Source of the DNA: a virus
Length of the DNA: 43,788 nt
Strand: one strand, 5' to 3'
IMG/VR virus record: IMGVR_UViG_3300045988_166023
This document shows positions 1 through 43,788 of the stretch, one piece after another. The translations under genes were made by a program, and so were the position numbers. The number at the start of each line of letters is the position of its first letter. Positions within the stretch are counted from its first letter, which is position 1. The notes beneath the pieces are model-generated. The model searched no databases and was not told the origin of the DNA. It saw only the letters and a list, made by a program, of their open reading frames with translations.

Positions 1-22
1 TAAATGGGAAGAGGAAAAATTA
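1..22 (+). repeat. Variant crossover-like site / inverted-repeat arm (partner 42473..42494); core TAAATGGGAAG
   Basis: The reverse complement of 1..22 matches 42473..42494 at 21/22 positions. Positions 1..11 differ from the shufflon core TAAATAGTAAG at 2 positions. Confidence 0.7.
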
Positions 23-119
23 TAACTTTGTCAAAGAAATTGTTGCGTAAATATTCTTAGTAGTAATTTTGAGAGTTTGATAATCAACCCAGGATACGAT
101 TCCTTCTAAATCCGACATA
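1..119. repeat. 119-bp direct terminal repeat, copy 1 (identical to 43670..43788)
   Basis: Base-by-base identity of 1..119 with 43670..43788. Confidence 0.97.
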
Positions 120-3355: not shown

Positions 3356-4450
3356 CTATAAAATCTTAATATTGCGAATAGCATCATTATCCTTTGACCT
3401 CATTTTCTCAGTAACATGAAGGTAAATCTGCCTGGTAATATCACTATTTTCGTGTCCCAGTCTCCGACTGATAGTTTCGATATCTACACCTTGTTCTGCC
3501 AGAAGAGAGGTGTGGGTATGTCGGAGCATATGAGGATGCACATGCTTGTGCAATACATTTTTTGCAGTATTTCCAAGTGCGAAGCGGTAATTAGTTGGAC
3601 AGAGATGCTTGCCGCTTCGCTGAAATAGTAAATCAGTCTTATAAACAAACTGGTTCATCAAAGCGACTTTCTTTAACCGCTGGCAGAGCGGGAATAGTTC
3701 TGTTTGAATATAAATACGGCGGTTAGAGGATTTTGTTTTAGGGGTGTCTGTGGTTTTTACATTGTGGCTGTATGTAGAATTCACATAAATGTATCGCTGT
3801 TTTAAATCGATATCGGAAGCAGTAACAGATAATGCTTCCCCAAGTCGCATCCCTGTAAGTACCAGAAAATGGGTAAGATCACGATAATCATCTTTTCGAA
3901 TTGCAGGGAGAAGCTTAGCGACTTCCCAAGATTCTAGATATTTACTCGAAATGTTAGATGAATCCTCTTTTTCTTCTTTTTTTGTTCTCTGAAGTTTATC
4001 AAGATATTGAATATTATCTACATAATCATTCAAATATCCCCACTTCATAATGAGTTTAAAATATCTCAGATGGTTAACAGAACTTCCTTCTGGATAAATT
4101 ATCTGTTGTCGGATAAAATTTGCTGAAAAACTTGATACCAATGTATCATCCCCTAATAGCTTTACCACATTTCTGGCTTCACACTCATAAATGAAATAAG
4201 TTGTTGCTTTACATTCATGCTTTTTTACATCAAGCCATCGATCACAAAGTTCGCCCCAGGTAATATCTTTTATTGGTGCAACATTTAACCGACTATCAAT
4301 CTTGGCCACAAGTGCCCGTTGTGCCATTTTTCTCGCCTGGGCAGTATTCTTTTCAGTAGTGACGGAAACTTTTTTCGTTTTGCCTGTCACCGGGTCCTTG
4401 TAGCGTTCTACATGCTTATACTTACCGTTCTTTGTTTTCTCGGTCCACAT
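3356..4450 (-). CDS. int: Phage integrase, tyrosine recombinase family
   Basis: Catalytic motifs TGMRLGEAL, HMLRHTH and LGHENSDITRQIYLH, with an N-terminal MWTEKTKNGKYK arm-binding-type start. ATG 4450 has AAAGGA 8 nt upstream. The track ORF runs to 4519. Confidence 0.9.
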   Translation of the reverse strand: MWTEKTKNGKYKHVERYKDPVTGKTKKVSVTTEKNTAQARKMAQRALVAKIDSRLNVAPIKDITWGELCDRWLDVKKHECKATTYFIYECEARNVVKLLGDDTLVSSFSANFIRQQIIYPEGSSVNHLRYFKLIMKWGYLNDYVDNIQYLDKLQRTKKEEKEDSSNISSKYLESWEVAKLLPAIRKDDYRDLTHFLVLTGMRLGEALSVTASDIDLKQRYIYVNSTYSHNVKTTDTPKTKSSNRRIYIQTELFPLCQRLKKVALMNQFVYKTDLLFQRSGKHLCPTNYRFALGNTAKNVLHKHVHPHMLRHTHTSLLAEQGVDIETISRRLGHENSDITRQIYLHVTEKMRSKDNDAIRNIKIL

Positions 4451-4498
4451 ATAAATCATCCTTTCTTCTGTGTAAAAAAGGGTATAAAAAATACACCC

Positions 4499-4527
4499 TA
4501 TACAATTGTTAGGATGCATGGTATAAT
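4499..4527 (+). promoter_or_regulatory. Sigma-A-type promoter (TATACA, 17 nt spacer, extended -10 TGgTATAAT) divergent from int
   Basis: Read directly: -35 at 4499..4504; TG at 4519..4520; TATAAT at 4522..4527. Confidence 0.5.
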
Positions 4528-7088: not shown

Positions 7089-7131
7089 AGAATAAAATCG
7101 AACATACTTTCGTAAGAAAGGAGCATACATA

Positions 7132-7278
7132 ATGAGAAAAGAGGACGAAGAGAGAAAAGAAATGAGCAGAGAAAGAATGGAGGAAAAAGAAATTTTAGAC
7201 TTGTATCGAAATCTAAATAAAAACCAGAAACAGAGAATAAAAATCATAATGAGAGGAATGAAGGGGAGGGTCTTTTAG
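7132..7278 (+). CDS. 48-aa highly charged small protein (not in the ORF track because it is under 60 aa)
   Basis: AAGGAG lies 8 nt upstream of the ATG. Sequence: MRKEDEERKEMSRERMEEKEILDLYRNLNKNQKQRIKIIMRGMKGRVF. It has its own promoter and terminator. Confidence 0.5.
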   Translation: MRKEDEERKEMSRERMEEKEILDLYRNLNKNQKQRIKIIMRGMKGRVF

Positions 7279-7293
7279 ACCTCCCCCTTTTTT
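7263..7293 (+). terminator. Rho-independent terminator overlapping two convergent stop codons
   Basis: Stem GGGGAGG(G)TC / GACCTCCCC with a 5-nt loop, then TTTTTT (7288..7293). Confidence 0.7.
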
Positions 7294-7661
7294 ATCTCAT
7301 CTATTTCCTTCATAATGAGATCCCATTCTTCATCTGACGTTCTGTAAACCAATTCTAGCAACATAGTCAACGCAGCCTTTTTGGATGCTGATGCATTTTC
7401 CATAACATATCCAAAACGGTTATATGCCTTGTCATAGGCAGATAATTTGATGAACATATTATCTTCTCCACCAACACCGGTGCGAAGCCATTCTTCATTT
7501 ACTCCAAATTCCCTGCAAATTGAAATGATATTTGATTCGCTTACATTATTTTCACCCTTTTCGATTTTCGAAATTGCAGTATTGGAAATGCCAAGGCTTT
7601 TTCCAAATTCAGATTGAGTCAGTCCGAGAGTCTTCCTTACTTCTTTGAATCGTTCGTTCAT
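7275..7661 (-). CDS. CI-like repressor, XRE-family HTH
   Basis: N-terminal LGLTQSEFGKSLGISNTAISKIEKGENNVS is a classic XRE HTH. AGGAGG SD. Divergent from the early operon. Confidence 0.85.
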   Translation of the reverse strand: MNERFKEVRKTLGLTQSEFGKSLGISNTAISKIEKGENNVSESNIISICREFGVNEEWLRTGVGGEDNMFIKLSAYDKAYNRFGYVMENASASKKAALTMLLELVYRTSDEEWDLIMKEIDEIKKGEV

Positions 7662-35826: not shown

Positions 35827-36540
35827 ATGTACAGAGGAAGATTAGGTGTGCAGATTGGAAACAAGCATACCCTTAAGGACTGGGGACTTGGTTGGACAAA
35901 AATTACTCTTGGTTTTCCAGAGGCAAAAACGTATGAGCAGGATATTCCGGGAATGGACGGAGTGTTGGATTTTACGGAATCTCTTACTGGAGGGGATGTG
36001 AAATACAAAATCAGAACCCTTACTCTTGAATTTGAAACCCCTGAACAGGACTATTACGATTGGAGTATTAGAATTTCAGAGATAGCAAATTACTTGGCCG
36101 GAAGAAAATATAAGATAATCCTAGATAATGACCCGGATTTTTATTATATTGGAAGGCTAAATGTTGAAGTCGAAAAATCAGACAGGGTAGAAGGAACTCT
36201 TATTTTGTCTGGAAGTGTTGCTCCATATAAATATGAAAAGTTTTCTAGTCTTGAAAACTGGGAGTGGGATACTTTTAATTTTAGAACAGGAATCATCCGA
36301 AATTATAAAGATATTTCCGTAGATGGTACATACAAACTTGTTATACCTGGCAGGAGAAAAAGAATCGTGCCGGTAATCTCCTGTGATGCAGCTATACAGG
36401 TATCTTACGAAGGAGTAACTTATGATCTTTCACCTGGCAAAAACAAAGTTTTTGGTATCTGTATCAAAGAAGGAAAGAATATTCTTACTTTTTCCGGAAC
36501 GGCAACCATTTCGGTTGATTATAGAGGAGGAGTATTGTAA
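35827..36540 (+). CDS. Distal tail protein (Dit)
   Basis: 237 aa, immediately after the TMP, as is canonical for siphoviruses. Confidence 0.65.
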   Translation: MYRGRLGVQIGNKHTLKDWGLGWTKITLGFPEAKTYEQDIPGMDGVLDFTESLTGGDVKYKIRTLTLEFETPEQDYYDWSIRISEIANYLAGRKYKIILDNDPDFYYIGRLNVEVEKSDRVEGTLILSGSVAPYKYEKFSSLENWEWDTFNFRTGIIRNYKDISVDGTYKLVIPGRRKRIVPVISCDAAIQVSYEGVTYDLSPGKNKVFGICIKEGKNILTFSGTATISVDYRGGVL

Positions 36541-37931
36541 TGTATCGTATTTATTGTGATGATAAAACGTTGCATGATGTGCGGGATGAAGAATATCAAC
36601 TTATAGCTCCAAAAATTTCATTAGAACTTAATAAGACAGGAAGTTTTGAGTTTGGAATGCTTCCATCTCATCCTCATGCAAACGATATAAAGAAATTAAA
36701 ATCTCGATTAAAAGTATATGACGTTGACGTATCAGATAGTGGGGAGGCTTCAAGATTACTATATTGTGGCCGTTCCATTACTGATCAGCGAGACTTTGAA
36801 TATACTGGTCAGATTACATGTGAAGGTGAGTTATCTTATTTGCTCGACACGATTCAGCGGCCGCATACTTACGGAAGCCAGTCAGGAGAAATCCATAAAG
36901 CGGATACTAATATTGCAATCTTCAAGCGTTTGATAGAAGAGCATAACTCTCAGGTAGAAAAAGAAAAGCAGTTTGAAATAGGAATTGTTGATATTGATTC
37001 AGTAGAAATCAAAACTTTGGCGACAAACTATGAAACTACCTGGGATTTTATTAATACGAATTTCCTTGAAAAATACGAAGGTTATCTTAGGGTGCGCTAT
37101 GAAAATAATGTTCGTTACCTTGACTATGTGAAGCAATACGGAAAAGTCAGTACGCAGGTAATCCGATTCGGAGAAAATCTTCTTGATTTTCAGAAGTATG
37201 TAAAAGCAGAAGACATTAAAACGGCAATTATTCCAATTGGAGCAAACAATGTAACTATAAAGACGGCAAGCGGGCACGATGGAAAGGATTATGTTTTTAA
37301 CCAGGAGGCGGTAAATCTTTACGGTTGGATATATAGTAAAGTAGATTTTTCGGATATTACCGACCCGAATACCCTTTTAGAAAAAGCACAGGAATATCTT
37401 AAAAAGAGTATCAATCTTGCGATAACTATCGAGCTGACGGCGGTAGATTTGCATATGGTAGATGTTGATATTGATTCTATCGGGCTGGGAGATTTCATTC
37501 CTTGCGTATCGCAGTATCATGGATTACTTAGTACACTTGGTGATGTATCAACTTATTATCTTGTCAGTAAATACGAGATAGATCTTGAAAATCCGGCAAA
37601 TACGAAAATCACATTAGGTAAAACTTTATCAGTGTTATCAGAAAAGATGGCTTCCAATGCAAACCTTAAAAGTGACATTCGGACAGTGGCAAGCAGCATG
37701 GAGGGGATTAAAGGAACCTCAAAGGAAGCCTATGACAAATCGGTGGAGGCAATGAAGGTAGCACAGGGAATTACCTTTGACACAATCTACCCCATCGGTA
37801 GCATCTATATGAGCGTAAACGATATAAACCCAACAGAACTCTTTGGTGGCAAATGGGAACTATTAAGTAAAAGTGAAACCATTCCCATTTATTACATGTG
37901 GGAAAGAAAGGAGGATGACGTTGATAAATGA
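36540..37931 (+). CDS. Tail-associated (Tal-like) minor structural protein
   Basis: 463 aa, following Dit. The C-terminal motif is YPIGSIYMSVNDINPTELFGGKWELL. Confidence 0.6.
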   Translation: MYRIYCDDKTLHDVRDEEYQLIAPKISLELNKTGSFEFGMLPSHPHANDIKKLKSRLKVYDVDVSDSGEASRLLYCGRSITDQRDFEYTGQITCEGELSYLLDTIQRPHTYGSQSGEIHKADTNIAIFKRLIEEHNSQVEKEKQFEIGIVDIDSVEIKTLATNYETTWDFINTNFLEKYEGYLRVRYENNVRYLDYVKQYGKVSTQVIRFGENLLDFQKYVKAEDIKTAIIPIGANNVTIKTASGHDGKDYVFNQEAVNLYGWIYSKVDFSDITDPNTLLEKAQEYLKKSINLAITIELTAVDLHMVDVDIDSIGLGDFIPCVSQYHGLLSTLGDVSTYYLVSKYEIDLENPANTKITLGKTLSVLSEKMASNANLKSDIRTVASSMEGIKGTSKEAYDKSVEAMKVAQGITFDTIYPIGSIYMSVNDINPTELFGGKWELLSKSETIPIYYMWERKEDDVDK

Positions 37932-39252
37932 TTTATTGAAAAAGATAAAAGAAGCTATCTATGGGGAAGAAGTCCGTAACAGTATACATGATGCGATAGA
38001 ACAGTGCTACAAAGATGCGACTGGGCATCCGGAAAGTGTAGCGGCAACAGTCAAGGAAATCGGAGAGGTATCTGCAAATCTATCAAAAGAACGAAAGCGG
38101 ATTGATAATCTAATTGCAACCGGCACTGCGCAAACACAGGAAATCGGGAAAGTTATAGCGACAACATCGGAGAATGGGGCAAAGATAGCGATGGACTATT
38201 TGTCAGAAGAAGTTACATGCAAAAAAGTGTTTACTGATGTAACTTTTCAAGATTTTAATTTTTTTATTGTTGCTTTGGGCACCCCAAAGGGAGATGTTGC
38301 AAAGATATTAAAGCCGGGCTTATATCACATGAAATTTTGTGTTAAGGTAAGTAAAGATAGTGGACTGCCAGAAATACCAATGAAAATTATGCTCAACAGT
38401 TCTACTTCGCCAGACAAAGGCTACGTGACACTTAAAAGAGAATATTTTGTGTTTCCGCAAACAGAATCGAAAAGAAACATGAGAAATGTAGAATTCGTAT
38501 TCGCTATAACGGAGCCTACATATATTACAATATCAGTAATAAGCGTTGCTGATGGTCAGGGAACTTTTGGTTTTAGCATAAGCGATTGTGCAATTACTGC
38601 CCTTGACTGGAAAGGCAAGCAGTCAGCAGACTTGTCCGAATTACATGATTTGCGTATAGAAGCAGGTGGAAGGAAACACGATACTGCAAAAGAAGCAATC
38701 AATGACCAGTTGAACGAAATCCATCAACAGATTGATGCAGTTGGAATAGCGAAAAATCTATTTATTAATATTCATGTGGAAAGAGTTAGAAATGGAATTA
38801 CTGTAAACATGGATGGGCATAAAATTAGCATATTCGGCACAGCAACAGGAGACGAATCGCTTACTCTTATAGCGGGAGAAATATCAGAATCAGGCTTAGA
38901 AACTGGAAGAAAATATTTTGTATACGGTCTTCCGACAGATGCATTTGCAAAATTTCAGTTAAAAGATAAAACCATCAAAGAAGTATTACTAGAAAATAAT
39001 TCTTTTACGATTCCAGAAGATGCAATTCAACTTGCATTTGCGATAAATGTGAAGAAAGGCGATGCATTAGATTATACAGGAGTATTGAGGGTGTATGAAA
39101 AAATTTATAAGGGCTCGTTTCAAGAGCAAATTGATACACTCAATGAGCAAATTAACGCAATGCAGCAGATCATCACAAAAATTGTCACAGCACCTACGTT
39201 GACCGCAGACACAAACGGTAACTTACAAATTACAGAGAACGAGGAGGGATAG
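37915..39252 (+). CDS. Tail/baseplate structural protein
   Basis: AAAGGAGG precedes ATG 37915 / TTG 37921. The N-terminus LINDLLKKIKEAIYGEEVRNSIHDAI is common in Firmicutes phage fibre or baseplate proteins. Confidence 0.55.
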   Translation: MTLINDLLKKIKEAIYGEEVRNSIHDAIEQCYKDATGHPESVAATVKEIGEVSANLSKERKRIDNLIATGTAQTQEIGKVIATTSENGAKIAMDYLSEEVTCKKVFTDVTFQDFNFFIVALGTPKGDVAKILKPGLYHMKFCVKVSKDSGLPEIPMKIMLNSSTSPDKGYVTLKREYFVFPQTESKRNMRNVEFVFAITEPTYITISVISVADGQGTFGFSISDCAITALDWKGKQSADLSELHDLRIEAGGRKHDTAKEAINDQLNEIHQQIDAVGIAKNLFINIHVERVRNGITVNMDGHKISIFGTATGDESLTLIAGEISESGLETGRKYFVYGLPTDAFAKFQLKDKTIKEVLLENNSFTIPEDAIQLAFAINVKKGDALDYTGVLRVYEKIYKGSFQEQIDTLNEQINAMQQIITKIVTAPTLTADTNGNLQITENEEG

Positions 39253-39253
39253 G

Positions 39254-39967
39254 ATGCAACCGATTCTGAAATTTGTTGTAAACAATCAGATTATCGAGCG
39301 GACAGATACATTTGTGCCAGTCCGAAGCAGCAAAAATTATCTCTACGCGGAATTTGATTTTCAGACAGACGACTGGAATGGCAAAAGCAAAACAGTCCTG
39401 TTCCGGAGCGGAGATAATGACCCTGTGCCGGTATTACTTGGCGAAACGAATACTTGTATTGTACCCGTGGAAGTGCTTGTAGGAGCGTCTTTCAGCGTGT
39501 CAATTGTCGCGGGTAATCTTATTACTGCAAATATGGTTATAGTTAAACTGTATGAGTCAGGATACCGACAGGGCGATATTCCAGAACCGTCACAAACTTT
39601 ATACGAGCAGTTAATGACAGCATTTGACGATACGAAACAAACAGTAATTGATAGCGCAAAAACAGCGGAATCATGGGCACATGGTCACGCAGAATATCCT
39701 GATCGGCAGAAAGACAATGCTGCATATTATGCAGAACAGGCCAGGAATGCAGCGGAAGAAGTACCGGGGCGAGTCACAAAAGGAAAAGAAGAAATAGACA
39801 ATTATGTTAAGCAGAAAGAGGTAGAACTAAAGGGAGAAACAGGAAATGTCTACTTTGCCGGATTTGCAGTTGTAAAAGGCCGACTAAAAATGTATTCAGA
39901 CCCCACTGTGGATAAGGTACGTTTTCGCCGGGAAGGTAGCCGTTTAAAATATAGGTTAGCATTATAG
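39254..39967 (+). CDS. Tail/baseplate-associated protein
   Basis: GAGGAGGG SD; 237-aa ORF in the fibre module. Confidence 0.5.
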   Translation: MQPILKFVVNNQIIERTDTFVPVRSSKNYLYAEFDFQTDDWNGKSKTVLFRSGDNDPVPVLLGETNTCIVPVEVLVGASFSVSIVAGNLITANMVIVKLYESGYRQGDIPEPSQTLYEQLMTAFDDTKQTVIDSAKTAESWAHGHAEYPDRQKDNAAYYAEQARNAAEEVPGRVTKGKEEIDNYVKQKEVELKGETGNVYFAGFAVVKGRLKMYSDPTVDKVRFRREGSRLKYRLAL

Positions 39968-39987
39968 GTTGAAAGGAAGGCGAGAAG

Positions 39988-41199
39988 ATGCAGACAGAAA
40001 ATACATATGTTGAAACCGATTTGGGCAATATTGCACTAAATCCCAGAGGCGAGTATTCGGGTGAGGCATCGTATGAGTATTTAGATACCGTTTCGTATAT
40101 GGGCGGCTCATATGTGTGTCTTGCAGAACTGACAAAAACCATCAGCGGAATTGCACCGGAAGAAGGCAAAAATACGGAACACTGGCAGATGCTGACCTTG
40201 CCGGGCGGATTAACGTCAGACTACATCGCAATGCATGACGATGTAGTCAACAAGGCAAAGCAGGTTGAAACATCCAGGGCGGCTGTAGAGCTGTCTCAGC
40301 AGGAAGTTGAAGACGCACAGGCAGATGTGAGCCAGATGCGGCAGGCTACGCAAGAAGCATCCGAGGAGGCTGCTGCAAGCCGGGACAGTGCGGCAGGCTA
40401 CGCTCGGTCAGCAGAGGCATCAAGGACGGCAGCAGCGGAATCTGAACAGAATATCAACGCGCAGGTAACTGGCTTTGATACACATGTTGCAGAGAAAATC
40501 TCTGCAGCAGAGTCGACAGTTGAAGAAGCGAGAAAAAAAGCTATTGATGCAATTACGACACAGCAGGATACGTCTACGAAAGCGGTTACAGATGAGGGAA
40601 CAACACAGACAAAAATGGTCGGAGGTGCAGGCAATACAGCAGTTAGTGCTGTAGCAAAACAACAGGCAGCATCCGTACAGGCGGTAGAAGATGCTGGGAC
40701 AGCACAGGTAACAGCAATTGAGAGTGCTGGTAATGAACAGATAACGGAAGTTAATAAAGCCGGCACTACGCAAGTGGAAAATGTTGAAGAAGCAGGAAAT
40801 CAGCAGAATGTAATCCTTACCGAAGCGGCAGCGCAGGAATTGATTAAGTTGCAGGAAGTCGCAAAACAGTTTGCCGAAGACCATGAGCAAATTGAGACGA
40901 ATAAAGGTAATATAACTACACTGACGGAGAAAAAAATCCAAGCGTGGTTTCCAGGAAAAACTACAGAGGATTCAACAATTACTACTAAAGAGAGTGCTTT
41001 AAGCGATACGGCAGGCAATACGATTCTTGACCTCGCAGGAAATGAGATCGGAACAACTGTTGAAGTAGTAGTTCCCAAACCCCCGTATTATTTGGGAGAC
41101 CTTTGGATAGCTGACGATGCAATATATATTTGTACAACAGCACAAGAAACAGGAAAATTTAGATTATTCGACTGGTTAAAGATTTTAGAAAGGAAGTAA
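39988..41199 (+). CDS. Tail fibre shaft protein with 11-residue A-G-x-x-Q repeats
   Basis: Ala/Glu/Thr/Gln-rich. It has phased repeats AVEDAGTAQVT / AIESAGNEQIT / EVNKAGTTQVE / NVEEAGNQQNV. It sits directly upstream of the variable tip gene. Confidence 0.6.
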   Translation: MQTENTYVETDLGNIALNPRGEYSGEASYEYLDTVSYMGGSYVCLAELTKTISGIAPEEGKNTEHWQMLTLPGGLTSDYIAMHDDVVNKAKQVETSRAAVELSQQEVEDAQADVSQMRQATQEASEEAAASRDSAAGYARSAEASRTAAAESEQNINAQVTGFDTHVAEKISAAESTVEEARKKAIDAITTQQDTSTKAVTDEGTTQTKMVGGAGNTAVSAVAKQQAASVQAVEDAGTAQVTAIESAGNEQITEVNKAGTTQVENVEEAGNQQNVILTEAAAQELIKLQEVAKQFAEDHEQIETNKGNITTLTEKKIQAWFPGKTTEDSTITTKESALSDTAGNTILDLAGNEIGTTVEVVVPKPPYYLGDLWIADDAIYICTTAQETGKFRLFDWLKILERK

Positions 41200-41205
41200 T
41201 AGATT

Positions 41206-41682
41206 ATGGCAAATTGGAAAGAATACACAACAAAAACGACACCAGAAGATGCAGATGAGATTGTGATTGCCGACACCAAGGCAAATGCAAATAAGAGAAC
41301 CCCATTCAGCGGATTATGGAACTGGATTGCAAATAAATTAGCAACTGCAGTAATCTCGCAGTTAGAGACTCAAAACAAGTCAATTATTCCGGCTCTCAAT
41401 GAATTAAATAGTAAGCGTCTTAGGGCATATACACTTAAAGCAAACTCTACTCTGACTATCGAATTAGAGTACGACACTTGTTATTTTCTTGTTACAACAG
41501 GAATAAGCAATAATGATATACCTCCTTTAACAACAAATGTGTATACAGTTACGGTAGCAGCCAAAACACGAAGCAGTGATGTCTCTATCATTCATTCGGA
41601 TATTAGCAACATCGAGGTTTCAATCGAAGGAAATAAATTAACTTTGTGTAGCACCGCATGGAAGAAAATCTTCATTAAATAG
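41206..41682 (+). CDS. Phase-variable tail-fibre tip protein: constant N-terminus (aa 1-70) currently fused to cassette A
   Basis: GAAAGGAAG SD. Codons 67-70, L-N-S-K (tta aat agt aag), contain the shufflon core at 41406..41415. The C-terminal 88 aa are paralogous to the inverted cassette b'. Confidence 0.8.
   Translation: MANWKEYTTKTTPEDADEIVIADTKANANKRTPFSGLWNWIANKLATAVISQLETQNKSIIPALNELNSKRLRAYTLKANSTLTIELEYDTCYFLVTTGISNNDIPPLTTNVYTVTVAAKTRSSDVSIIHSDISNIEVSIEGNKLTLCSTAWKKIFIK
41406..41415 (+). repeat. Shufflon core site AAATAGTAAG at the expression junction
   Basis: Exact 10-mer in frame inside the fibre gene, at the boundary between the constant and variable parts. Confidence 0.8.
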
Positions 41683-41686
41683 TAAG
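41677..41686 (+). repeat. Shufflon core site AAATAGTAAG
   Basis: Exact 10-mer. It contains the TAG stop of cassette A (41680..41682). Confidence 0.8.
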
Positions 41687-41974
41687 CCATTCATGATACG
41701 TCTTCCTGTGTCTGTAAGCTTGCAGGATACCATTGCCACAATATCAATTGATATTGCCGATGCTGAACGAGGTGTAATTATTCTCACTGGTCGTTTCGGT
41801 GGAGAAATTTATTTTTCCTCAATTATCAACTATGGCTCAACATGGGACGTAAAGCAGGTGGTCTTCGCCGGTAGCAACACCATTAAAAATGAGCAAAACA
41901 AAAAAGTTCTTACCATAACCAGCGCAAAAGCTATTTCCAGCAAATATGAGGTCAATGCACTATTGATTAAATAG
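41687..41974 (+). CDS. Silent tail-fibre C-terminal cassette B (95 codons)
   Basis: Open in the AAT-AGT-AAG frame of core 41677 (NSK|PFMIRLPVSV...NALLIK). There is no SD before the internal ATG 41693. Confidence 0.6.
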   Translation, partial: PFMIRLPVSVSLQDTIATISIDIADAERGVIILTGRFGGEIYFSSIINYGSTWDVKQVVFAGSNTIKNEQNKKVLTITSAKAISSKYEVNALLIK

Positions 41975-41978
41975 TAAT
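41969..41978 (+). repeat. Shufflon core site, variant AAATAGTAAT
   Basis: 9/10 match to the core. It contains the TAG stop of cassette B. Confidence 0.7.
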
Positions 41979-42224
41979 GCTGTACCTAAAAAGCTTTTGT
42001 TTGAACATACGTCAATCGAGGCAACTTATAAAGAAGCTAAAGTAGGGATAAGTTTTTGTAAAGCACAAGGAGCATCAGATTTTCCGCTTCCTAACCCATT
42101 AACATTAATAATTAACGTAAAGAGCGGGGAAGAATGGGGAATGCAATACGCATTGACTTCGGTAGGAAAAATCTTTACTCGTCCAGTTAACAATGGTGTT
42201 TTTACTGACTGGATTCAAGTTTAA
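41979..42224 (+). CDS. Silent tail-fibre C-terminal cassette C (81 codons)
   Basis: Open in the core frame (NSN|AVPKKLLFEHTS...GVFTDWIQV). There is no ATG or SD. Confidence 0.6.
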   Translation, partial: AVPKKLLFEHTSIEATYKEAKVGISFCKAQGASDFPLPNPLTLIINVKSGEEWGMQYALTSVGKIFTRPVNNGVFTDWIQV

Positions 42225-42232
42225 ATAGTAAG
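42223..42232 (+). repeat. Shufflon core site AAATAGTAAG
   Basis: Exact 10-mer overlapping the TAA stop of cassette C. Confidence 0.8.
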
Positions 42233-42475
42233 GCTACATCGAAGGTAATAACCGCTGAAAATCTTGAGAAGGAATTCGCAAATTTCCCGAGCAATAGTAT
42301 CTCTTTTTTACAGTGTCAAAGCGCTATTGATAATCCTCGAAAGGGAATGCTAGCTTTATGCATAAACTACAAAACTTCACCAGCTTGGGGTTTTCAATAT
42401 TTATTTTCGTATAGTAACATTTACTTTCGGAACATTGGGAATGGAACATTTGGCGATTGGCAACAAATCAAATAA
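42233..42475 (+). CDS. Silent tail-fibre C-terminal cassette D (80 codons; absent from the ORF track)
   Basis: Hand translation in the core frame: NSK|ATSKVITAENLEKEFANFPSNSISFLQCQSAIDNPRKGMLALCINYKTSPAWGFQYLFSYSNIYFRNIGNGTFGDWQQIK, then stop. It shares the G-x-F-x-DW tail with C, c' and d'. Confidence 0.6.
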   Translation, partial: ATSKVITAENLEKEFANFPSNSISFLQCQSAIDNPRKGMLALCINYKTSPAWGFQYLFSYSNIYFRNIGNGTFGDWQQIK

Positions 42476-42494
42476 ATTTTCCTCTTCCCATTTA
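42473..42494 (-). repeat. Variant crossover-like site / inverted-repeat arm (partner 43670..43691 = 1..22)
   Basis: TAAATTTTCCTCTTCCCATTTA matches the reverse complement of 1..22 at 21/22 positions. It contains CTTCCCATTTA, the reverse complement of TAAATGGGAAG. It starts at the stop codon of cassette D. Confidence 0.7.
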
Positions 42495-42517
42495 ATTGAT
42501 TTGTGAACAAAGCACTT

Positions 42518-42541
42518 CTTATGGCAAAATTAAGCCATAGG
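42518..42541 (+). promoter_or_regulatory. Hairpin sequestering part of the recombinase SD
   Basis: CTTATGGC / GCCATAGG stem (8 bp including one G-U pair) with an 8-nt loop. Its 3' arm overlaps the GGAGG at 42540..42544. Confidence 0.35.
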
Positions 42542-42552
42542 AGGTGCTTATT

Positions 42553-43551
42553 ATGACTGAAATTGAGAAGATTCAGAGCAAAATTTTAATGAGAATGCAG
42601 GATGTTTTAGACAATGAGCAATTACAGAAACTTGAGAACGTATTAGTTCTGGAGTTTCACAACATTGAAGTAAAACAGGAATGTACAGATTTGGTAACTT
42701 CGGAGCGGCATTGGGAGAAAATACTTCGAACATTTCTGGCAAGCAAGAGGATCGAAAACTGTTCAGAAGGAACGCTGAAAAGTTATAATGATTGTGTAAC
42801 AAGATTAATAACAACACTGAATAAGAGACTACAGGATATAACAACAAATGATATCCGGTATTACTTAGCGATGTATCAAGAAACAAGGAAAATATCTATG
42901 AGCTACTTAGACACGATTAGACGATATCTGAGTAGCTTTTTCGCCTGGGTGTCTGATGAAGGGTATATTCAAAAAAACCCCATGAGACGATTGAAGAAAA
43001 TAAAGGTTCCGCAGACAATCAAAAAGCCTTTTACACAGGCAGAAATGGAGCACTTAAGATGCAGTGCGGAATGTCAGAGAGACATTGCGATAATGGAATT
43101 TCTATATTCGACAGCGGCACGTATAGGTGAAGTCATAAGGCTTAACAGAAGGGATATTAATTGGGAAGGGAAAGAGGTAATCATTTACGGTGAAAAGGGT
43201 AAGAAAGAAAGAAAGGTGTATTTGACAGATGAGTGTGCATATCACTTAAAAAAGTATCTGTTCGCACGAACGGATATGAATCCAGCTTTGTTCGTGAGCA
43301 ATAAGCAGCCACACAGCCGTTTGGGAAAGCAAGCAATACAGTCGATGTTGCGGACACTGGGAAAGAAGACAGGAATCCACGCTCATCCGCATAAATTCCG
43401 AAGGACACTTTTAACGGATGCCGGAAACAGAGGAATTCCACTGCAGGAAATCCAAGCCTATGCAGGTCACCAGAAACCAGATACAACGATGCTATATGTA
43501 ACGGTTAGCGAAGAAAATGTGAAAGCATCTTTTAGAAGATATATAGCCTGA
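42553..43551 (+). CDS. Tyrosine recombinase (XerC/D- or Rci-like), candidate shufflon invertase
   Basis: SAM-like N-domain. Catalytic residues lie in STAARIGEV (R), HPHKFRRT (H-x-x-R), GHQKPDTTMLY (H, Y). GGAGGTG SD lies 7 nt before ATG 42553. It sits between the two cassette arrays. Confidence 0.9.
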   Translation: MTEIEKIQSKILMRMQDVLDNEQLQKLENVLVLEFHNIEVKQECTDLVTSERHWEKILRTFLASKRIENCSEGTLKSYNDCVTRLITTLNKRLQDITTNDIRYYLAMYQETRKISMSYLDTIRRYLSSFFAWVSDEGYIQKNPMRRLKKIKVPQTIKKPFTQAEMEHLRCSAECQRDIAIMEFLYSTAARIGEVIRLNRRDINWEGKEVIIYGEKGKKERKVYLTDECAYHLKKYLFARTDMNPALFVSNKQPHSRLGKQAIQSMLRTLGKKTGIHAHPHKFRRTLLTDAGNRGIPLQEIQAYAGHQKPDTTMLYVTVSEENVKASFRRYIA

Positions 43552-43669
43552 CAAAATGATTCTATACAGATTTTTCAAACCGGCAGAAATGGCGGTTTAT
43601 TCTGCGTGTTTAAAAAGTGAGAGACTAGAAGGGAGAATAAGAGAAAATCAAGAAAATGAGGTGTTAAAC

Positions 43670-43788
43670 TAAATGGGAAGAGGAAAAATTATAACTTTGT
43701 CAAAGAAATTGTTGCGTAAATATTCTTAGTAGTAATTTTGAGAGTTTGATAATCAACCCAGGATACGATTCCTTCTAAATCCGACATA
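43670..43788. repeat. 119-bp direct terminal repeat, copy 2 (identical to 1..119)
   Basis: Base-by-base identity with 1..119. Confidence 0.97.

Follow-up and report, generated by a model that had tools for sequence, protein, structure and literature searches.

The inverted repeat that brackets the recombinase gene of this phage is an active inversion site, and public assemblies hold the same phage with the intervening 1.2-kb segment both ways. The window, by which we mean the whole 43,788-nt stretch analysed (IMG/VR record IMGVR_UViG_3300045988_166023), comes from a temperate gut phage that carries a tail-fibre shuffling locus. Taken as a whole, the data are probably best explained if the repeat is a private crossover pair, recombining only with itself and served by the phage's own recombinase, that inverts a self-contained module independently of the tail-fibre cassettes.

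The window is a circular assembly, as indicated by a 119-bp terminal direct overlap in which positions 1–119 are identical to 43670–43788; positions 1–22 are therefore the same right arm of the repeat as 43670–43691. The recombinase occupies the centre of a shufflon with eight canonical sites, AAATAGTAA, and the cassette arrays converge on it from both sides. Four of these sites are on the plus strand, at 41406, 41677, 41969 and 42223 (spanning 41406–42231); the first lies inside the constant fibre gene and the others head cassettes B, C and D. The remaining four, on the minus strand at 312, 586, 847 and 1124 (spanning 312–1132), lie at the heads of a', b', c' and d', silent cassettes that are read in the direction of the recombinase. 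All eight are read in the L-N-S-K frame of the constant fibre gene, and the expressed tail-fibre gene (41206–41682, plus strand) consists of the constant N-terminal part joined to cassette A at site 41406. The locus has the hallmarks of a shufflon, in that short crossover sites in both orientations part alternative 3' cassettes, with a recombinase nearby. Natural cassette fusions are found, the constant fibre part being joined to a' in loci L013 and L091 and to c' in L088, and in L013 cassettes A–C are found on the opposite side of the recombinase. The family comprises at least 79 IMG/VR contigs; the layout was compared in 47 relatives, all with the same arrangement as the window, and relative to the recombinase their 5'-side canonical sites are always on the plus strand and their 3'-side sites always on the minus strand.

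The left arm of the repeat (42473–42494, TAAATTTTCCTCTTCCCATTTA), in minus orientation, carries the 9-nt core AAATGGGAA on the minus strand at 42485–42493, and the right arm (43670–43691, plus strand) carries it at 43671–43679. As the initial annotation had it, the arms match as reverse complements at 21 of 22 positions, the sole mismatch falling at repeat position 19, and they begin at the stops of cassettes D and a'. The outer TAA of the left arm (42473–42475) is the stop codon of cassette D, and the outer TTA of the right arm (20–22) is that of a' on the minus strand. Over the inner 18 nt the match is complete, and it stops right at the inner edges, 42494 and 43670. Across the genome, just four further inverted repeats (≥16 nt, within 3 kb) came up in a scan, each of them AT-rich or palindromic, and we estimate a chance expectation of ∼0.001 per 44 kb for an 18-nt perfect inverted repeat within 1.5 kb.

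Compared with the cassette core AAATAGTAA, the arm core AAATGGGAA differs at positions 5 and 7, and each variant site points opposite to its neighbours among the eight canonical sites, a polarity already noted in the annotation. The canonical form given there, TAAATAGTAAG, is right in its two central differences from the variant and too strict at its ends, the leading T being present in just five of the eight canonical sites and the site at 41969 ending in AAT. Only the 9-nt core is common to the relatives; the rest of the 22-bp sequence is the shared 3' tail of the terminal cassettes, and in many relatives the arms share merely 9–11 nt. Logos of the sites reveal no internal dyad, and conservation spans only ∼14 bp. 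The TAAAT...ATTTA ends of the left arm, which could be taken for such a dyad, are accounted for by the stop codon. With a site of just 9–14 bp and no obvious two-arm symmetry, any assignment of the cleavage points and overlap region is a guess.

The inversion itself is seen in assembled scaffolds. The initial annotation had predicted a separate module that flips the recombinase segment alone, with 42494 joined to the reverse complement of 43669 together with the reciprocal junction, and a single sample of this phage yields both. An ENA scaffold, L089, matches window positions 39001–42494 at 100%, through cassettes A–D and the left arm, and then continues as the reverse complement of 43633–43669; its reciprocal, in scaffold L002 of that sample, joins window 1–55, reverse-complemented, to 42495 onward. 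At these recombinant junctions each arm retains its own base at repeat position 19, and the crossover therefore lies within the inner 18 nt. The exact recombinase protein of the window is also found on 1.2-kb mini-contigs with ends inside the arms, among them L005, which measures exactly 18 + 1175 + 18 = 1211 bp and was seen in eight samples, and in seven IMG/VR contigs the sequence turns back into the contig's own flank, with 100% identity. Among the relatives, L033 and L046 have the same module at 100% identity, with the two flanking cassettes swapped, and at least 14 terminal-cassette tails change sides between loci, lying 5' of the recombinase in some and 3' of it in others.

The ends of the relatives' contigs pile up at the arms, in agreement with the earlier suggestion that the contig break reflects population heterogeneity. 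L088, a Logan contig, ends exactly at an inner edge, and another contig stops precisely one 55-mer beyond the point at which, going outward, the perfect 18-nt match ends; breaks also occur at the first canonical site. Position 1 of the window had been placed at the outer edge of the repeat. It is actually at the inner, recombinase-proximal edge of the right arm, the very point at which an inverting segment would put a branch in a de Bruijn graph; the first 119-mer of the contig starts there.

Could these junctions arise with no inversion at all, either from co-assembled strains with different cassettes beside a conserved recombinase or as assembly chimeras? Metagenomes do hold several alleles of the window's recombinase, one of which has 68 nucleotide differences over 999 positions and zero amino-acid changes, and strain mixtures can yield contig ends at boundaries between conserved and variable sequence. 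Such mixtures, however, would not be expected to give a scaffold like L089, which equals the window over 3.5 kb and differs only past 42494, where it is the exact reverse complement of the far end of the module, nor its reciprocal in the same sample, nor two loci (L033 and L046) that are 100% identical save for the rearrangement. The arms, at 9–22 nt, are also shorter than the assembly k-mers (55 and 119, inferred from contig ends and overlaps, and k141 in contig names), and each junction is therefore spanned by real k-mers. We regard an artefactual origin as extremely improbable.

Searches of other collections add little. The exact junction patterns gave no match in IMG/VR or JGI metagenomes, a result that is uninformative because the cassette D tail of the window is absent from both. 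Exact-protein look-ups with the cassette D and a' ORFs found no record, and megablast of 36000–43669 against GenBank phages found no match. GTDB genomes gave a single match, in an Eggerthellaceae MAG bin; the Eggerthellaceae are high-GC organisms and the GC content of the window is 39%, making a host assignment from this bin doubtful.

The recombinase gene (42553–43551, plus strand, ATG at 42553) encodes an Xer-like tyrosine recombinase of 332 residues, with the catalytic domain and the core-binding SAM-like N-terminal domain expected of this class (Pfam Phage_integrase, 1.8e-30, and Phage_int_SAM_4, 4.4e-14). All six catalytic residues (R, K, H, R, H, Y) have their counterparts in an alignment to XerD; compared with XerD (1a0p) and XerA (4a8e) they are R in TAARIGE, K in GEKGKKER, the H-x-x-R pair in PHKFRR, H in AGHQ and Y in MLYV. 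We considered whether the protein is a true XerC, XerD or XerA orthologue acting in dif dimer resolution and rejected this; its NCBIfam scores fall under the equivalog cut-offs (XerA 203.6 against 220, XerC 136 against 335, XerD 126 against 330) and its gene lies in a phage fibre locus.

The arms are probably a working crossover-site pair for this enzyme. The variant core retains the cassette-site skeleton AAA-Y-N-G-N-R-R, and the core type tracks the recombinase clade. Both observations argue against a different catalyst, be it host homologous recombination over the 18–22-bp repeat, a host Xer enzyme, or the second tyrosine recombinase of the phage, its lysogeny integrase (3356–4519). The perfect 18-nt match of the window's arms would suit the first of these, and the presence of the integrase gene the last, but flank swapping is seen also where the arms share only 9–11 nt, too short for RecA-type exchange, and we consider another catalyst very unlikely.

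Comparisons among the relatives suggest that the pair is private. The difference at core positions 5 and 7 would confine recombination of the AAATGGGAA pair to itself, as the initial annotation proposed in supposing that the central mismatches isolate it from the cassette sites. Consistent with this, in 47 loci variant cores occur only beside the recombinase and canonical cores only in the arrays, with hybrid cores at noise level, and the 9-nt core is the same in both arms in 73 of 73 loci, which span seven core types. A crossover in the core would then invert the 1,175-bp module and leave the order of the cassettes unchanged, a step borne out by the recombinant junctions. One locus, L086, is at odds with a strict separation of the two site classes, in that a variant-core site there heads an apparently real cassette. 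In L082 and L071–L080 the recombinase-proximal sites equal the cassette sites and head ORFs of 79–125 residues, and long protein-like outward frames are, with the exception of L086, almost confined to clades with canonical proximal sites.

Two other roles for the variant sites were considered and rejected. The first is that in the clade of the window they head hidden cassettes; in 89 of 142 arms the frames that point outward are either short or antisense junk. The second is a small ORF starting at the ATG within the variant core (ATG at 43673, 9 nt from an SD-like GAGGTG), which would encode 18 residues on one side and 7 on the other; it was dismissed because the cores of other clades contain no ATG.

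The module (42495–43669, plus strand) comprises a leader, the recombinase gene, a terminator and a purine-rich spacer. The leader forms a 16-bp hairpin (42511–42548, plus strand; −26.9 kcal/mol, z = −6.98) in which an anti-SD, CACTTCT, pairs with the SD, GGAGGTG. The initial annotation had described a hairpin at 42518–42541 overlapping the recombinase SD; the overlap is real, and the structure is larger, pairing the entire SD. When leaders are folded one by one, the SD comes out paired in 38 of the 39 distinct ones from relatives, although their sequences differ, and RNAalifold found no consensus structure in the MAFFT alignment of the leaders because their 5' arms are misaligned.

A candidate recombinase promoter (42501–42530, plus strand) may be formed by TTGTGA (42501–42506), an 18-nt spacer and TGG-CAAAAT (42522–42530), the last lying in the hairpin loop. 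Motif and spacing (17–18 nt) are kept in relatives with 82–100% recombinase identity, including those with indel-bearing leaders, the −10-like sequence in the loop being TGG-CAAAAT, CATAAT or TATACT with TTGT(G/A)A 17–18 nt upstream. A generic scan for sigma-70-type promoters, whose consensus may not be that of the host, gave no match in the 58-nt leader, where the candidate is sub-threshold, and gave fewer matches than in shuffled sequence. About 25 nt after the recombinase stop codon, a hairpin with a T-rich tail (43577–43604, plus strand) forms a probable one-directional intrinsic terminator, present in all clades with compensatory changes in the stem; a further terminator lies on the minus strand at 1167–1144. 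With a hairpin that hides the SD, a promoter-like loop and a terminator of its own, the module therefore looks insulated from outside transcription. The leader hairpin would silence translation of read-through transcripts, and a transcript started in the hairpin loop, from what would be a weak promoter, would be free of the anti-SD arm.

These features bear on the proposal, made in the initial annotation, that inversion switches the recombinase on and off, with read-through from the late fibre operon driving the gene in the co-oriented state and the inverted state leaving it silent. The recombinase is indeed the last gene downstream of the fibre operon, with a terminator behind it, and the minus-strand terminator at 1167–1144 stops transcription from the other side. 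The failure to find a consensus sigma-70 promoter in the leader would also agree, with the caveat on consensus given above, as would the orientation of the gene among relatives: it matches that of the neighbouring genes in 77% of them (53:16, a count based on a rough ORF-strand proxy and on contigs that are related and hence not independent). A read-through transcript would, however, include the full hairpin that buries the SD and is so widely conserved, whereas transcripts from the −10-like hexamer kept in the loop would escape the anti-SD arm. Moreover, an OFF state without recombinase could not flip back; it would act as a trap and be expected to build up, yet it is the supposed ON orientation that predominates. 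With the SD sequestered, a terminator of its own and this orientation bias, control of the module by read-through is unlikely.

The arm sites probably descend from ordinary cassette-head sites after loss of the cassettes, because some relatives retain canonical sites next to the recombinase, with real cassettes behind them. This raises the question of whether they are anything but a neutral relic, i.e. leftover cassette-head sites that the recombinase still recognises and whose cores drifted just far enough to stop harmful fusions to the constant fibre part, with a flip of no consequence. Simple relatives have four identical sites, so that a recombinase flip is an unavoidable by-product; L086 resembles a transitional state; and, the module looking insulated, its orientation may not matter. 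Relics, however, would be expected to decay in some lineages, yet all 73 loci keep both arms with identical 9-nt cores, and at least six core changes needed matching substitutions in both arms. Orientation also departs from 50:50, and in three pairs of relatives set apart by a cassette inversion, the recombinase has been re-inverted to the same outside orientation. A neutral relic thus has a modest chance of being the right explanation.

We favour a working private pair. Any cassette inversion would flip the central recombinase gene as well, and the private pair would let the orientation of the gene be set independently of cassette choice, the gene apparently coming to rest in the direction of the late genes in the majority of assembled relatives. 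Recombination itself could also keep the arms matched. A bolder reading, which we think doubtful, makes the pair a second-order switch in the shufflon, the self-flip setting whether, or how strongly, the tail-fibre diversifier runs in each lineage. If this were true, one natural enzyme would run two orthogonal inversion circuits by way of a two-base core difference. In a related and likewise doubtful reading, synapsis of the central arms would act as a hinge that aligns the cassette arrays antiparallel and enforces inversion over deletion.

Phage tail-fibre shufflons driven by tyrosine recombinases have been recognised only recently. To these the present family adds a recombinase placed centrally, between cassette arrays that converge from both sides, and a further class of crossover site, private to the recombinase gene and flipping that gene by itself. 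The family offers a compact system for studying the recognition of minimal asymmetric sites, the position of strand exchange and the regulation of recombinase-gene orientation. The arms also systematically break short-read assemblies of these phages, which explains both the 1.2-kb orphan 'integrase' contigs and the contig ends exactly at the arms.

Among the closest parallels is the Rin shufflon of Bifidobacterium prophages, in which a phage-encoded Xer-like tyrosine recombinase without an arm-binding domain acts on an 11-bp asymmetric crossover site (TTCCCTAACCC) placed before each variable C-terminal cassette of the receptor-binding protein, with multiple inversions between prophage and virion DNA (PMC6109161). 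Both systems combine an Xer-like phage recombinase with short asymmetric sites that head C-terminal cassettes. The rin gene, however, lies at one end of its array, whereas the recombinase here is central in every relative; the crossover-site sequence is unrelated to TTCCCTAACCC; and a second site class and inversion of the recombinase alone are not described for Rin (PMC6109161). A BV01-like Phocaeicola phage, also from the gut, similarly has short directional motifs (10 bp) that part its fibre cassettes, with a recombinase adjacent and all configurations present in reads (PMC13596623). It has three cassettes, its recombinase flanks the shufflon rather than lying at the centre, and nested inversion of the recombinase is not reported (PMC13596623).

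In the pneumococcal cod/ivr locus, the tyrosine recombinase PsrA serves three inverted repeats, IR1 (15 bp), IR2 (298 bp) and IR3 (85 bp), all of which rearrange coding parts of hsdS, IR2 and IR3 acting through IR1-like sequences (PMC7096588). Those pairs are distinguished by length and position; none is devoted solely to the recombinase gene, and a private core is not described (PMC7096588). The likeness to our phage is that a single tyrosine recombinase serves several distinct inverted-repeat pairs in one locus of alternative gene parts.

The shufflon of R64 and other IncI plasmids depends on the tyrosine recombinase Rci, which carries out inversions only and selects the C-terminal ends of pilV; rci lies outside the invertible segments and does not flip, and the sfx sites share one 7-bp core and all recombine with one another. 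Many short asymmetric sites in both orientations and a tyrosine recombinase are common to the two systems, but here the target is a phage fibre gene rather than a plasmid pilus gene, and the recombinase gene flips. In that respect the module resembles the Salmonella Hin/hix switch, in which a recombinase gene likewise lies inside its own inverted segment; the phage, too, has an inverted site pair bracketing a recombinase-containing segment that occurs both ways round. Hin belongs to the serine recombinases and depends on an enhancer and on Fis, whereas the enzyme here is a tyrosine recombinase, and Hin has one site pair that is not nested in a cassette shufflon. The outward promoter of the hin segment is the point of that switch; in our module a consensus scan limited to sigma-70-type promoters, which may not fit the host, found no outward-pointing promoter-like sites.

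The predicted control of the recombinase gene recalls fold-back inhibition in IS10/Tn10, where outside transcripts hide the transposase ribosome-binding site in a hairpin and the element's own transcripts start inside the hairpin and are translatable. We propose the same reading for hairpin 42511–42548, with a predicted start site, for an invertase rather than a transposase. Finally, the proposed self-only pairing of AAATGGGAA as against AAATAGTAA, which we infer from comparative data, has its match in heterospecific lox sites such as lox511 and lox2272, in which one or two spacer changes allow self-recombination by the same Cre but none with wild-type lox. The lox variants are products of engineering whose cleavage positions are known and whose 13-bp arms are symmetric; the present pair would be their natural counterpart, with two bases in a 9-nt core splitting two inversion circuits.

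The recombinase gene is flanked by two 22-nt arms, at 42473–42494 on the left and 43670–43691 (equivalent to 1–22) on the right, one matching the reverse complement of the other at 21 of 22 positions, as the initial annotation held. The inner 18 nt are perfect, identity ends exactly at 42494 and 43670, and the outermost three bases of each arm are the stop codon of the adjoining cassette. Eight canonical AAATAGTAA sites surround this module. The left-hand four are on the plus strand and the right-hand four on the minus strand, so that all cassettes read toward the central recombinase gene; the variant sites (core AAATGGGAA) are each oriented opposite to their neighbours.

Direct evidence for inversion of the module comes from two sequences of the same phage in a single sample (ERZ28648444). 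One, a 35.8 kb ENA scaffold (L089) retrieved among contigs that encode an exact match to the upstream fibre-operon protein, matches window 39001–42494 at 100% identity across the constant fibre gene, cassettes A–D in unchanged order and the left arm, and then continues as GTTTAACACCTCATTTTC..., the reverse complement of 43633–43669. This is the inverted junction at 42494 by which the initial annotation had proposed that a flip could be recognised. The other contig (L002) carries the reciprocal junction, with the reverse complement of window 1–55 joined to ATTGATTTGTG (42495 onward). At repeat position 19, where the arms differ, neither has taken the other's base; the exchange is thus conservative and falls within the inner 18 nt. 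L089 stops after 37 nt of module sequence, and L002 opens with 37 nt of sequence beyond the perfect repeat; for both contigs, 18 + 37 = 55, matching the branching of a k = 55 graph at the repeat. The exact recombinase protein is also encoded on mini-contigs of 1203–1248 bp, one of which, of 1211 bp (18 + 1175 + 18), is found in eight samples. One Logan contig (L088) terminates precisely on the inner edge of an arm, and the a' tail of the window lies at the 5' side of the recombinase in L002, L011 and L013. Four further contigs of this phage (L093, L094, L097 and L090) end near window 41415–41457, at or just past the first canonical site in the fibre gene, and the base following AAATAGTAAG differs in each; these breaks are a sign of within-sample cassette switching.

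The same arrangement extends to relatives. A recombinase search of IMG/VR gave 79 loci with 63–99% protein identity, and every locus with both sides visible has an inverted site pair at a conserved distance around the recombinase. Seven fold-back contigs run from flank through arm, module and arm and then back into that flank in reverse complement (39–308 bp at 100% identity, running to the contig end), a structure that can arise only if one sample contains both junctions. The arms show a strong excess of contig ends: 15 of the 58 on the 3' side lie in the terminal portion of the module or no more than 76 bp past the inner edge. At least 14 different terminal-cassette tails are found at the 5' end of the recombinase in some loci and at its 3' end in others. 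Inversion at canonical sites cannot be the source of these patterns, since it carries the recombinase along with the terminal cassettes as a unit.

Inversion through the arms also bears on where the window begins. The window is a circular assembly of 43,788 bases in which 1–119 is duplicated at 43670–43788. Position 1 does lie on a repeat edge, as first noted, this being the inner and not the outer edge of the right arm, and the first 119-mer starts exactly there. If both orientations were present, that 119-mer would be the first k-mer common to both forms and would have two predecessors. Attribution of the break to heterogeneity is sound with the edge so corrected, and relatives behave alike, the argument being circumstantial for the window's own sample.

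Comparison of the two classes of site suggests how the pair is kept private. Family-wide, only a 9-nt core is common to both arms, and it is the same in both at 73 of 73 loci. Seven variant core types occur (AAATGGGAA, AAACAGGAG, AAATCGGAG, AAATAGGGA, AAATGGGAG, AAATAGTGA and AAACAGTAA), while clades with differing variant cores all retain AAATAGTAA at their cassette sites, apart from one group with AAATAGCAA. From this constancy beside matched but divergent variant cores, the variant positions appear to behave like an overlap region, in which only identity with the partner counts, and not like protein contacts. Among the 47 loci that share the window's core type, AAATAGTAA occurs 79 times in left arrays on the plus strand and 116 times in right arrays on the minus strand, and AAATGGGAA occurs 90 times, only adjoining the recombinase; the hybrid core AAATAGGAA occurs nowhere in these loci and AAATGGTAA twice, the level of control motifs.

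The recombinase-proximal sites of the remotest relatives (L082 and L071–L080) are identical to the cassette sites and head real convergent cassettes of 79–125 aa. The window's clade has no space for such cassettes, the outward frame being a 20-aa tail only, and the variant sites therefore look to be derived from former cassette-head sites. A core change there would block fusion of the constant gene to junk. One relative (L086) may represent a transitional state: at 7119–7370, on the 3' side of the recombinase, a variant-core site (AAATGGGAAT) heads an 83-aa protein-like frame (NGNSFNNTYNLNLTDWNN...), possibly a cassette left stranded by a core that is no longer able to pair with the canonical site of the constant gene.

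Recombinase orientation seems to matter: of the 69 loci that could be classified, 53 have the gene in the direction of its flanking genes, by a crude proxy and on non-independent data. Both members of three cassette-inversion pairs (L033/L046, L039/L042 and window/L013) have the same recombinase orientation relative to the outside, which requires an additional inversion of the recombinase alone after the cassette inversion. The simplest interpretation is that the private pair would uncouple recombinase orientation from cassette choice and permit return to the co-directional state, which may be favoured because it keeps the recombinase gene from being transcribed antisense to, or head-on into, the fibre operon.

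The module itself looks self-contained. Its 58-nt leader holds a 16-bp hairpin (z = -7), present as first described but extending over 42511–42548 rather than 42518–42541, that pairs the Shine-Dalgarno sequence; the relatives (L001–L087) supply 39 distinct leaders of differing sequence, and 38 of these pair it too. The hairpin loop always contains a -10-like hexamer (TGG-CAAAAT, CATAAT or TATACT), with TTGT(G/A)A 17–18 nt upstream even after indels, in clades with 82–100% recombinase identity. By analogy with IS10, the arrangement points to a transcript of the gene itself that begins within the hairpin, and to read-through transcripts that are translationally silent. About 25 nt past the recombinase stop codon, a conserved hairpin with a T-rich tail (43577–43604) shows compensatory stem changes across clades; the opposite strand has an A-rich run after the hairpin, so termination is probably one-directional. 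A purine-rich spacer of 60–70 nt separates it from the right arm. Such apparent shielding, with the buried Shine-Dalgarno sequence, the hexamer in the loop and the module's own terminator, argues against the earlier proposal that the recombinase is expressed by read-through from the late operon. Elsewhere, a strong minus-strand terminator (1141–1167) lies directly upstream of the silent cassette array and, on the plus strand, a long, AT-rich hairpin carrying a T-run (1229–1264) comes just ahead of the gene at 1292, itself followed by the holin and lysin genes; jointly they wall the shufflon off from its neighbours.

The gene (42553–43551) encodes a 332-aa tyrosine recombinase with SAM-like and catalytic domains and all six catalytic residues in place, nearest to XerA, XerC and XerD and scoring under their orthologue thresholds. 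Among the alleles compared with it (L001, L003, L006 and L013), one with 68/999 nucleotide differences encodes an identical protein, which implies strong purifying selection; its differences are concentrated at both gene ends, a mosaic pattern that suggests allele recombination. A second allele has 176 nucleotide differences and 9 amino-acid changes.

The phage is temperate and siphovirus-like, encoding terminase, portal, tape-measure and tail proteins, holin, GH25 lysin, a CI-like HTH repressor (7275–7661, minus strand) and a lysogeny integrase, a second tyrosine recombinase of 387 aa (3356–4519, minus strand); no close relative was found among GenBank phages. Given the integrase and repressor, fibre switching could take place in the prophage, as happens in Mu and P1. 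The sole GTDB-genome match (L087, CAVBVT010000014.1) is a contig assigned to an Eggerthellaceae MAG bin; this host is doubtful because Eggerthellaceae are high-GC and the window has 39% GC.

Tyrosine-recombinase shufflons are known from R64, and Hin is encoded within its own invertible segment. IS10 shields its transposase from outside transcription, and the leader hairpin likewise appears to shield the recombinase gene. Further tyrosine-recombinase shufflons occur in Bifidobacterium prophages (Rin; PMC6109161) and BV01-like phages (PMC13596623), and PsrA is one tyrosine recombinase acting on several repeat pairs (PMC7096588). A dedicated, core-isolated pair inverting only the recombinase gene at a shufflon centre was not found in the full-text literature searched. 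Shufflons of this type, a recombinase in its own invertible segment and one enzyme for several pairs are thus known already; what is apparently new is a core-isolated site pair that flips the recombinase gene alone, at the centre of a shufflon.
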